From NCBI GenBank assembly GCA_030295235.1, contig AP026137.1:1116001-1161780 (forward strand): DNA of 45,780 nt, in the 5' to 3' direction. Positions 37,579 to 42,000 of this stretch are shown piece after piece. The notes below the pieces were generated by a model that had not been told where the DNA came from, searched no databases, and saw only the letters and a program-made list of their open reading frames with translations. Each line of letters begins with the position of its first letter. Within the stretch, counting starts at the first letter, position 1. The stretch is from Fistulifera solaris. Its lineage: Eukaryota. The translations under genes and the position numbers were made by a program.

Positions 37579-39072
37579 CTATGCTTTCGTTTACTTATTT
37601 TTGTAATCAAGGTTAAAAATCGACGATGAAGAGACCTGCAACAAACAACGAGCCAAACCGTTTTCTCACAAAACAACCAACGCAAAAACAGAAGGCGGTG
37701 CAGCAAGTCAAACTTTTTCTAATCATTACCACGGAGTAAAATGTAATCTGCCCCCGATAGCTAGTCATCAATCGACCTCTTCAGCAGGAACATTGGGGCT
37801 AAGTTTTGGAAAGACGAATGGCTTGCAGGCCGAGTGCCATTCTTGGCTCGGCGTCGTGCTGGTAAAGTCGCGTTCCATTTTCAATTTCCCTTTTGTTTTT
37901 ACTGTGAAAACATATTTGATCCAGCGGCTCATTCTGGACAAAGTTTGTCGTCTCCATGCTGACTGAAGAGTCTGGCCAATTTCAGCGGTCTGGGGGCTGT
38001 TTAGTTTTCCAGCTGCAATAATGTGTCGTTATTCGCAACAAGCCCACCATCGTCTATTTGGGCTATTTCAAAGTCTGTTGACTCCGTGCTGACTGAAAAG
38101 TCTGGTGAATTCACGCGGTTTGGGGCTGCTTCGTTTTTCAGCAGCAAGAAGGTGCCACTATTTTCAACAAGCCTGTCACCGTCTACTTGGGCCATTTCAA
38201 GCTGAAGCATCCGTTTGTTTGCCTGTTCAATCAGTTGCACGTCGTGATCCACTGCGCTCGAGCATAACATGGCCTGTTGCTCGTTAGCGAGATGTGACTG
38301 CAGATGACAATTTTCTTAGCAAGTTTGAGTCATGTTAGTGACTGATTTTCCATAGTATTTGTGTAGTCTACTACTTATACTACACAGAGACGGCGCATCG
38401 GTATTGCTATTTAGACTTCGACTGTCTATTTGAAGATAGAGTCACTTGGATACCATTGGGAGATATTTGAAGTTGCAGTTACAGGGATTGGATACCGTTG
38501 AGAGTGCAACGTCGACAATTTTGCAGGCGTGGACATGTTTCTTCTCTTGCCACGACTGACTGTCACGTAGACCTTCAGTACATTTCTTACGTGTCGTAGC
38601 CAACCTACGGAAGCCTACGGAGCTATGTTCATTTTCTACAGGAATTCAGTACTTGTTTTCTTTGCCACCTCAGCACAAGTTCCTGAAGATTGGAGAAAGG
38701 TGTGCAATCATTTTCCATTAGAATAGGTCTCACAAAATAAAAATGAATTAGAAATCAACCCATATTTACCGAGTTTACTGAGTCTTCTTTGTGTGGTGAA
38801 ATTCTCAAGGTCACAAACCTTGCGAGTCGATCTACATCCTTTGAGTCCAGGCAGGCAGACAGTGAGTAAGTAACAACAAGCGCACTGTGTGGTTGTCTTT
38901 GCTGATCATTGCAATCAAAGAGTGTTTGCGATATCAGTGCTTTCGTTGTCAGTTGATCATCTCATCAAAGAGTGTTGAGTTGGTTGATTGTCGTCTTTCG
39001 CGTGAGGATATTCCGCATTCGAATTCCGTGAGCTATCTGTGCGCTCGGAATTTCTGTCAGATTAACAGTCGC
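37452..39072 (+). repeat. Subtelomeric ~1.63-kb direct duplication, copy 1
   Basis: Near-identical to 42293-43928 (mostly small indels); contains an internal ~130-bp tandem duplication at ~37950-38205. Confidence 0.95.
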
Positions 39073-42000
39073 AAGCCTCTGGATTGTGTTTGGCTCGTTG
39101 GCTGTTTCACGTGGGCTGTTGTGAAGCTCTCGTGAGGTTGTTTGACTTGTGAGTCTTGTTTTGCTCGCGAGTCGCCAGTGTCTGCTTGACGTCCGTCGTT
39201 GTTTGACTTGTGAGTCTTGTCTCGCTCGTGAGTCGCTCGCTGTCTGTCTGCCGTCTGCCTACCGACCTGTCTGTCAGCCTACCATCTGCCCGTCTGTCCG
39301 CTCGTCTGTTTGTCTGTCTGTCAGCCCGACTACCTGTCCGTTCGGCTAGGAATCCTTGAGGTTCCAGTCCAAGCAGTGACCCGCTTTACAGGAGTGGTGC
39401 GTCCGACAAGTCCTATCAATCTTCTGTTGTTCACCAAAGCACTGTACCCGCTCAACGAGTAGCCAAGCTACTGCTCGGGGAGTACCTGTATACCGGCTCA
39501 GCGAAGGCGCTTCGCGATCGTTCCAATTGGCCCGCTGTGTAGAAGTCTATGGAAGCTTGGGGCTTAGTAATTCGGATTTTCCGGTCTGTGAGGTCGCGGT
39601 ACTGGGTACACATAGTGCTAAGAATTAACAGTGGGCTTGAAGACAGGGAGTAAGGTTCCTATTGCAGGTTCTCTTATCTTTCTGTTGTTGGGGATTCTGG
39701 TTGGGCGGTATCTAATCTACTGGGGCCTTTGTTCCTTGGTACATCCGCATTCCAGCAGCTCTGCTGTAAAGTGTCGGGACACGTGCTTGGCAGGCGATCA
39801 CCTACCTTGCCTGAACCAACCCTTGAAGGTATAAGGGGGCTGTTGAGGAGTACACCGAGTGCAAAGGGAAGGGTACTTGGTCCTCACTGTCGCTGATTAC
39901 GGCTCAAGTTCGGAGGTCTTCCTTGACGCCAGGGTCGCTACTCCTGGATAGGAGATTGGATTTTCCGGTGTCATACATTTCACACGCCATCTCTGAGCCC
40001 TTTTAAGTAGTAGTACACTCAAGGTTCAAGGTCAAGCTTTCAAGTTCCAAGATGGTTCTCCCTCGATCCCAAGGACGTGTGCCTTCGATCCGTCCTCGAT
40101 GTACTTTTGGACTGTGCCAATTCCCGGGCCTTAAACTGTCCCTTGTTTCTCGTGGCTACACTACGCTTCCCAAACTGCTCTGTATTGACTATGCTGTTAT
40201 CGACTGTCTTACCTCACGAAGAGAAACCCGGCGGTGCCGACGATAGTACTCCAGTCCGCGGTTCCAGTACGCAAGCCGATAAGGACATGCTAAAGATGTT
40301 TTTCAAATGCGTCGCCCGATCGTCACTATCAGGGTAACCCCATCAATGATTGGATGTCAGTCACAGTTGAAGAGTTCGATTCCTTTTGTCTACGGGGAGA
40401 CATTTCAGCAGCGCAATGGCTGCACTCTTGCAAGCACACCAAGTCCTACTGTGTGTCTTAGCAGTACAAAGCCCACGATGTCCCCAGCTCATGCCTATCA
40501 ACCGCGGCATCAAGCGATTCTTCACTCCTTCCTACAGTCAAGAGTGAAAGTCAAAATGACTACGTCACATCTGTCATTCGTGAATACGAATGCAGCGCTC
40601 AACACCGGCAGTAGTACACTTAAGGATCCGTTACGTACAAGCCTACTACTGACAACAAAAGGATATCTTCAATGTGAGCGAACAAGTACAAGCGACTACT
40701 CTTTGTCCGGCTCACGAGCGTCCGTCTGGTAATGCATCGACTCCACACCACGACTGATAAGGGTGAAGACATGCAATTAGCTTGTGACACGGAAGCGGTT
40801 AAGGGTTCCATCCCCAATAAGGATGAAGACAATATTTTGGGTTTTTCGTCTAACCTCAACCATACTGGTTCTGGCAGTTCTCACGGTTTCAATCTGTTCT
40901 GTCGCACCGTGCATTCCCATGAGTCTCTTCCTCCTGAGCCCGATCCCGATCCTGACCCTTCAGATCCTGCTGATAAGTTCCTCAATGCACCACAAGACAC
41001 TGATCCTCCCCAAGAAGCTGATTCAACACTTTTGGTCAATGCTGCACAATCCAACAACTTGCACCTTGACCCCTCGCGATATTCGGCGTATTCTTTCGCG
41101 AAGCTCCCGCGACTAGTGCCAATCGGACACTGAGTGCAAAGCGTGCTTATCACGTATTGTGTCTCAATGGGACATCACGTCATCCTCACTTGCTTCTTTG
41201 GTCGATCGTGGTGAAAGGGAAGAGTCGCTGGATTCTGACGTCCGTTCATTGACAAGGTTTTTTTGGCATTGTCACATTGGCATTCAAGGCATTGAAAACC
41301 ACCAAGTGACCGGCCTTGAGATCATGACTGTCGCCAACATTGTTCCTACTGAATTACCTCCTGCCGAACCTCCTCCTGTTCTTTTGGTCACTTCACGCAC
41401 TGTGCCCAAATGTACTTCCGATTTCTTGTGGTTACGTCTTTATTTTGGCTGGATCAACAATGATGTCAGTATCTTTCTCGCTTCTACTTAGGGCAGAGAG
41501 TACCAGTACTCTATGTGCGCGGCAATTATTGTCTTCCTTCCGAGTCCCCAGAAGTCATGGGTTACAGTGTCAATATTTCTGAGCATGTTTGCCCCACCCT
41601 GTCCTGGGCAATACTTGCCGGATCCTCAGCAAGTAATTGTTGGCTCCCAGGTCCCTCCCTACACTCTGGATGACCCTACTTTGCGCTCTGACTGACGGGG
41701 AGTGTTAGCATTTGTCCACTCCAGTTGTACAATCTTGTACATCCGTCCTTGAAGTGGATCCTGATGCTATTGCTGATATCAGTCCTCCCGGCGCGCTGTC
41801 AGTCCTCAAGTACAGACTGCTACTTATGGTTCCGAATTTATTGCAGCGAGCGTCGTTGAGCAGATCATCGATCTCCGCCAATACACTCGCGATATTTGAA
41901 TTACCAGTTCGGCGAGAAGGCTTATATGTTTGGGGATAATGAGTCTGTCGTCAACAGTGCTACCATGGTACACGTAAAGCTACACAAGAGACATACTATG

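Follow-up and report, generated by a model that had tools for sequence, protein, structure and literature searches.

A short motif in a 45,780-nt stretch of DNA from Fistulifera solaris (assembly GCA_030295235.1, contig AP026137.1, positions 1,116,001 to 1,161,780; hereafter the window) is, with high probability, the primer-binding site (PBS) shared by a clade of Ty1/copia retrotransposons in diatoms and by the deleted or non-coding forms derived from them, which would be primed by a 5′ fragment of tRNA-Asn ending at C40. The motif stands at the 5′ long terminal repeat (LTR) of the elements, is exactly complementary to the tRNA, is conserved across element families and is present in young copies. 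The search pattern GATTAACAGTCGC occurs at 39060, 43916 and 44629 of the window, each time directly after TGTCA. The first-pass annotation, made from the letters of the window, had placed TGTCA plus this motif upstream of two Copia leaders, which was verified at 39055–39072 and 44624–44641; the third exact copy (43916–43928) and a 9-nt remnant (45405–45413) are additional to it. A diatom host is supported by several full-length matches to silicon transporters (best E 3.5e-222), although such transporters are not exclusive to diatoms.

In the host tRNA-Asn(GTT) genes, TGCGACTGTTAATC occupies positions 27–40; its exact complement is GATTAACAGTCGCA, so that the anticodon-arm match proposed in the first-pass annotation holds for the host itself. 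In the 51.7 Mb of genome searched, GATTAACAGTCGC has 32 exact matches compared with about 1.6 expected from base composition, and a reversed control pattern has none. Two of the 32 are the host tRNA-Asn(GTT) genes, which are identical over 74 nt; in 28 the motif follows an LTR end, and L007 and L022 lack an LTR-like context, in line with chance expectation. TGTCA precedes 21 of the 30 non-tRNA matches, TGTTA precedes six and CATTA one, the last in a locus bearing gag and reverse transcriptase (RT). Three GATTATCAGTCGC loci (L057–L059), out of 25 one-mismatch matches, were examined and rejected as further sites: two lie inside pol of a motif-bearing family and one has no family match.

Base 14 lies outside the search pattern and is A in 26 and G in two of the 28 element sites; either base is able to pair with U27. 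None of the 28 has at base 15 the C needed opposite G26, and the last base of the LTR (ends are A or T-A) cannot pair with G41, which needs C. With no pairing to G26 on one side or to G41 on the other, the match is therefore exactly 27–40. Extra pairing to tRNA-Asn 1–26 was limited to chance-like exact matches of 5–7 nt in the 300-nt leader, and duplex folding with tRNA-Asn gave a few extra pairs beside the site, which differ between copies; no bipartite site is claimed. Sequence fixes the pairing range only, and the primer could be tRNA-Asn with an end other than C40, either through a loop cut (37/38) with processing of the cDNA end or as an uncut, unwound tRNA acting through an internal 2′-OH. 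In small-RNA data from diatoms the tRNA fragments result from cuts at several positions (PMC4247016), and an extra C stands before the motif in eight of nine rust-fungal sequences (PMC10886601). Such an end is nevertheless unlikely: pairing continues unbroken as far as C40 and ends at the LTR boundary, initiator tRNA-Met (iMet) sites of the same genome stop at the same position, and published Hemivirus priming uses the 3′-OH of nucleotide 40 (PMC1181622).

Stretches of about 10 kb were fetched around the matches outside the window and the tRNA genes, which gave 26 stretches (C1:1577110 lies within the stretch of C1:1576044). Paired LTRs with a perfect 5-bp target-site duplication (TSD) occur in 12 copies (L031, L033, L035, L038, L042, L043, L049 and L051–L055); the remaining fetched stretches are tandem, truncated, unpaired within the stretch or without a TSD, and L047/L048 form a tandem pair within the TSD CGGAT. 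In all 12 TSD-flanked copies the gap between 5′ LTR and motif is 0 nt, no motif follows the 3′ LTR and the polypurine tract (PPT) ends in GGGGAG; their LTR pairs are 406–758 nt long and 94.8–99.8% identical. In TSD-bounded copies the motif thus directly follows the 5′ LTR at its 3′ end, and lies neither inside the LTR nor at its start. The lack of a TGG-type PBS noted in the window extends to all 11 representative elements, where the 20 nt that follow the LTR are free of TGG. By blastn the leaders belong to 10 otherwise unlike families, across all of which the motif is kept, in elements that range from about 7 kb and coding to 1.75 kb and non-coding. One short non-coding element (L032 and L033, G000:C1) has 688-nt LTRs on either side of a 372-nt interior, in which the Asn site and PPT are present; a three-LTR tandem stands at one of its loci. 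At the coding end, L037 has a 1452-aa open reading frame (ORF) with an RVT_2 RT (PF07727, E 6e-29). A Pfam search of this ORF matched the RT alone; motifs at 140, 501–536, 938–1154 and 1336–1419, which we take to mark its other domains, stand in Copia order. Paired LTRs, PPT, a perfect 5-bp TSD (in the 12 genomic copies) and an RVT_2-type RT are Ty1/copia features; the window copies are truncated.

Two further explanations set tRNA-Asn aside as the present primer. The motif could be a conserved cis signal (for packaging, dimerisation or integrase), or it could serve self-priming or a hairpin of the kind found in Tf1 or fungal GalEa; the tRNA match would then be incidental. Priming without tRNA is known among LTR elements (PMC6317226, PMC5445492) and another clade of this genome has a palindromic site with no tRNA assignment, but a 14/14 match to the anticodon arm in the copia/Ty5 register is hard to get by chance and makes this explanation very unlikely. 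Self-priming or a hairpin was considered and rejected in its own right, as the longest complement of the site is 4–7 nt within 800 nt upstream and 600 nt downstream in 11 of 11 elements. Alternatively, since the window's own copies are broken, the motif could be a relic of past tRNA-Asn priming or tRNA capture, with present copies priming otherwise. Against this, the exact site occurs in copies whose LTRs are 98–99.8% identical, and which are therefore young, including non-coding derivatives that keep little else; a relic is extremely unlikely and the least probable of these explanations.

Half-tRNA-Asn priming thus remains the preferred reading, and the diatom clade has the features that mark half-tRNA priming: a PBS adjoining the 5′ LTR, an anticodon-arm complement reaching position 40 and no TGG site. 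On the model of Drosophila copia and yeast Ty5, tRNA-Asn would be cut after C40, the 5′ fragment would anneal to the element RNA by its last 14 nt, and RT would extend the new 3′-OH, with the last base of the LTR as the first base copied. A review credits RNase P for Ty5 (PMC5371799). The copia/Ty5 geometry suggested in the first-pass annotation is supported by the host tRNA match, the LTR-adjacent position and the missing TGG site, from which we infer the priming itself. The elements are very probably copia/Ty5-like in their working, as judged from sequence; Hemivirus or CoDi membership is not claimed.

Other Copia elements of the same genome provide a comparison. With PF07727, 134 matches were obtained (of the 167 candidates, 150 were scored), and 56 of these loci, mostly the best-scoring without a motif match, were fetched and sorted by pattern, with LTR ends taken from TSDs where these were found. 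In the Rfam tRNA search 63 of the 1922 candidates were scored, most of them on small contigs of organelle-like appearance; the sites were compared with six nuclear tRNA types. An initiator site, GGTTA[T/C]GAGCCCAG, is the complement of host iMet 27–40 and pairs with it exactly or with the T/C position as the single mismatch; it occurs at 20 of the 56 loci, with an insertion variant at one more. At least 21 of the 56 thus carry a site for iMet 27–40, the register of copia and Ty5, and two tRNAs, Asn and iMet, appear to be used in the same 27–40 register within one genome. Eleven loci (L061, L064, L069, L081–L083, L085, L097, L102, L107 and L109) carry CGCTTCCTCTGC, a 12/12 complement of the host initiator D-arm (positions 12–23), which would imply a primer of roughly 23 nt; eight of them have 6-bp TSDs and the other three are unresolved. 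A palindromic CGCTT...AAGCG-type site, which opens with CGCTT like the D-arm class, marks 16 loci (L065–L068, L071, L074, L076–L078, L080, L087, L093, L095, L100, L108 and L114) as CGCTTATAAGCG, CGCTTTAAAGCG or, in L087, a variant, with 6-bp TSDs in 11 of the 16. Two loci (L110 and L111) have GTTTAT(ACAG/CAAAG)ACCCAG, which resembles a bulged iMet 27–40 site, and the sites of five fit no class. The sole canonical-looking site, judged by eye, is in L103, where TGGTAGCACTGC matches the initiator tRNA 3′ end with CCA; the LTR, as defined by the TSD, ends with the first T of this match. LTR ends other than TG...CA (TAACA...TGTTA, TG...GA and AG/AA...CT), with perfect TSDs, were observed in L043, L047, L048, L055, L062, L063, L079, L088, L089, L096, L099 and L103.

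The Asn-site elements group together in an RT tree. Its input was single tblastn RT pieces, for which 73 loci matched and 67 reached at least 100 aa; L040, L047, L049, L053, L056, L057 and L059 (duplicates, frame-crossing, RT of another element, or a stretch lacking the PBS) were left out together with identical rows, so that 50 rows remain, and most D-arm loci gave no usable RT piece. The 22 Asn-site rows (12 genomic and 10 metagenomic) form one side of a branch with support 84 (quick tree, unstarred), and no other surveyed locus falls inside this group in the 50-row tree. Together with the two GTTTAT elements as sister group, the branch has support 99, at a point where the tool warns of long-branch joins. 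The pattern TGTYAGATTAACAGTCGC has at least 121 matches in metagenomes and none in viral contigs. The 80 metagenome matches listed were analysed and form 51 clusters. Base 14 among these 80 is A in 62, G in 16 and C in two (78 of 80 pair with U27), and base 15 is A in 35, G in 25, C in 14 and T in six. Among the 62 metagenome loci that offer 600 nt or more, a gag profile was matched downstream of the site on the sense strand in 32 and on the antisense strand in one; a PPT plus LTR start lies 212–689 nt upstream in 24 of 39 clusters, compared with one of 43 downstream. Many of the metagenome contigs resemble collapsed LTRs.

Several points weigh against priming by a tRNA-Asn fragment in a single clade. 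Contig-level sequencing runs cannot show RNA ends, and the primer fragment was not seen; nor is Asn ever named in the main text of the Phaeodactylum tricornutum small-RNA paper (PMC4247016). Of the 13 runs listed, all contig-level, three were aligned with 38200–40300: X1 spans almost the whole interval, whereas X12 and X13 match the LTR-end/PBS junction of related families only. That they represent RNA is a guess, and they do not count here as evidence. The clade support of 84 carries no star and was obtained from a quick tree. Purines are generally favoured after the site (A or G at base 15 in 60 of 80 metagenome matches), which weakens the base-14 test without cancelling it, and the metagenome search was conditioned on the motif and thus cannot show that the site is present clade-wide.

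Half-tRNA priming and its Asn version are both already in print, and the novelty here is modest. In Drosophila copia and yeast Ty5, as in the diatom clade, the site is complementary to an anticodon arm and the primer ends at nucleotide 40 (PMC1181622); these elements use the initiator tRNA-Met, shown by experiment, whereas the diatom clade would use Asn. The closest parallel in tRNA is found in rust fungi, where Helenus miniature terminal-repeat retrotransposons (TRIMs) and their Copia partners (Kojima 2024, PMC10886601) share with the diatom clade the tRNA arm, the 5-bp TSD and a Copia partner. According to that text, tRNA-Asn-GTT was chosen once as primer, and fungal Helenus and Copia use anticodon loops. 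Nine rust-fungal internal sequences in its supplement start with ATTAACAG, most as (C)GATTAACAGTCGA; the type is named Asp in one passage and Asn in another, and the sequence fits Asn. The rust-fungal elements differ in their fungal host, their tRNA-derived LTRs, the usual one extra base before the site and the stem bases (...GTCGA rather than ...GTCGCA in diatom sites), and the diatom Asn site marks autonomous elements, unlike the Helenus TRIMs (PMC10886601). Other Copia lineages with internal-tRNA sites use other tRNAs in other hosts: the plant Osser, Bryco and Gymco-II (half tRNA-Met) and Bianca (half tRNA-Ile; PMC6317226), and the fungal FunCo1 (internal tRNA-Lys; PMC5445492). The half-tRNA types in print (iMet, Ile, Lys, Asn and Tyr) are mostly readers of ANN codons with the common end ...UAAYC, Tyr being the exception, and this common end may ease primer switching.

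Among diatom elements, the CoDi elements of Phaeodactylum and Thalassiosira (Maumus 2009, PMC2806351) resemble the Asn clade in host group, Copia RT, sizes and mostly TG/CA ends. Published CoDi ranges are 5.2–8.1 kb for length and 153–844 bp for LTRs, with mostly TG/CA ends (PMC2806351); 11 of the 12 TSD-flanked Asn copies measure 5.3–7.8 kb and one 1.75 kb, their LTRs are 406–758 bp and some end in TA. The main text of the CoDi paper has no mention of 'tRNA' and describes no PBS (PMC2806351), and no CoDi name is among the 120 homologs listed. No report of the diatom Asn site was found in the open-access library searched, which does not include Repbase, GyDB or subscription papers; the supplement of the CoDi paper may bear on novelty. 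Nothing on it was found in PMC4247016, PMC7466962, PMC7773854 or bioRxiv 10.1101/2025.10.24.684338.

These observations extend half-tRNA priming, with its Asn version, to diatom Copia, the main repeat class of these genomes, and suggest the Asn site as a lineage marker. A specialist would be interested but not surprised, because the mechanism and the tRNA are already in print. LTRdigest by default matches tRNA 3′ ends. These sites would escape annotation filters that require such a match; PBS filtering with LTRdigest was part of one diatom pipeline (PMC7466962). A canonical-reading site in only one of the 56 other RT loci invites a wider and tentative reading, which we consider possible but rather doubtful: diatom Copia may largely have left tRNA-3′-end priming for Asn 27–40, iMet 27–40, iMet D-arm (12–23) or unassigned sites; one host activity may cut several tRNAs after C40 (mostly ANN readers ending in ...UAAYC), with lineages swapping primer tRNA through the distal part of the site alone; and the Asn clade may be an unreported, widespread aquatic lineage. 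If this were true, the Asn clade would be a handle on the nuclease that makes half-tRNA primers. With Asn 27–40, iMet 27–40 and iMet D-arm sites side by side in one genome, sequencing of small RNAs could test where the cut primers come from.

Contig C17 ends with the window, which passes into TTAGGG telomere repeats and contains remains of several motif-bearing elements, all on the forward strand. Element 1 begins with a 755-nt 5′ LTR (38305..39059, TGACA...TGTCA), which is 98% identical to the 758-nt LTRs of L031 (paired LTRs, TSD GTCAT). It is followed by the PBS GATTAACAGTCGCA (39060..39073), complementary to tRNA-Asn(GTT) 27–40 with A as 14th base at 39073, and by a long leader (39074..40052) with a 92–94% match to L031, L034, L037 and L056. 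Its gag-pol (40007..42185) is broken and internally deleted, and retains gag, the protease region, part of integrase and RNase H, as traced by tblastn with the natural ORFs of L037, an element of the same family, and by blastn to L031/L037; the same searches found neither an RT piece nor a 3′ LTR of its own.

Positions 42293..43928 duplicate 37452–39072 (97% over 1645 nt) and consist of host DNA, an LTR copy (43160–43915) and the motif (43916–43928). This roughly 1.6-kb duplicate, which may be genuine or a product of assembly, stops at the motif end, 43928. The third motif copy, at the end of the duplication, therefore represents no independent element. The LTR copy has the GCAGA flank of the first copy and no polypurine tract before it. 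Its interpretation as the 3′ LTR of element 1, or of LTR plus PBS as an aberrant cDNA end, was rejected on the missing PPT and the 870 nt of upstream host DNA shared with the first copy. Imperfect inverted repeats rich in AGAGAAA/TTTCTCT were observed at the start of the duplicated block (37425–37570 and 42293–42411).

A second family is represented by a 434-nt LTR (44195..44628, TGACA...TGTCA), 82% identical to a solo LTR (G000:C17:473676-474165) that fixes the LTR ends independently, with TSD CCAAG and no motif after it. The PBS of this element 3, GATTAACAGTCGCG (44629..44642), has G opposite tRNA U27; the 14th base is G at both 43929 and 44642, and can form a wobble pair with U27. Gag had been placed after both sites in the first-pass annotation. 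It was confirmed after site 1 (gag profile E 7e-10); after site 3, the broken frames at 44816..45250 have a gag-start likeness by eye in three-frame translation, and these frames gave no tblastn match and no gag-profile match by hmmsearch. The last element trace is a PBS remnant, AACAGTCGC, with the leader start of the short non-coding L032/L033 family (45405..45461; 94% over 62 nt to L032/L033). At 45405–45780 this PBS and leader fragment abuts the telomere repeats, as though a chromosome break within a retroelement leader had been healed there. The interval 45250–45406, which separates element 3 from the telomere, repeats in inverted form, over 155 nt and at 97%, positions 13232–13385, which lie within a host ORF. 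Elsewhere in the window, an ORF at 36027–36644 on the reverse strand looks aquaporin-like by eye, 22224–23282 is an ORF region with a repeat of about 147 nt, and an ORF at 18481–18702 has a proline-rich 30-nt repeat.

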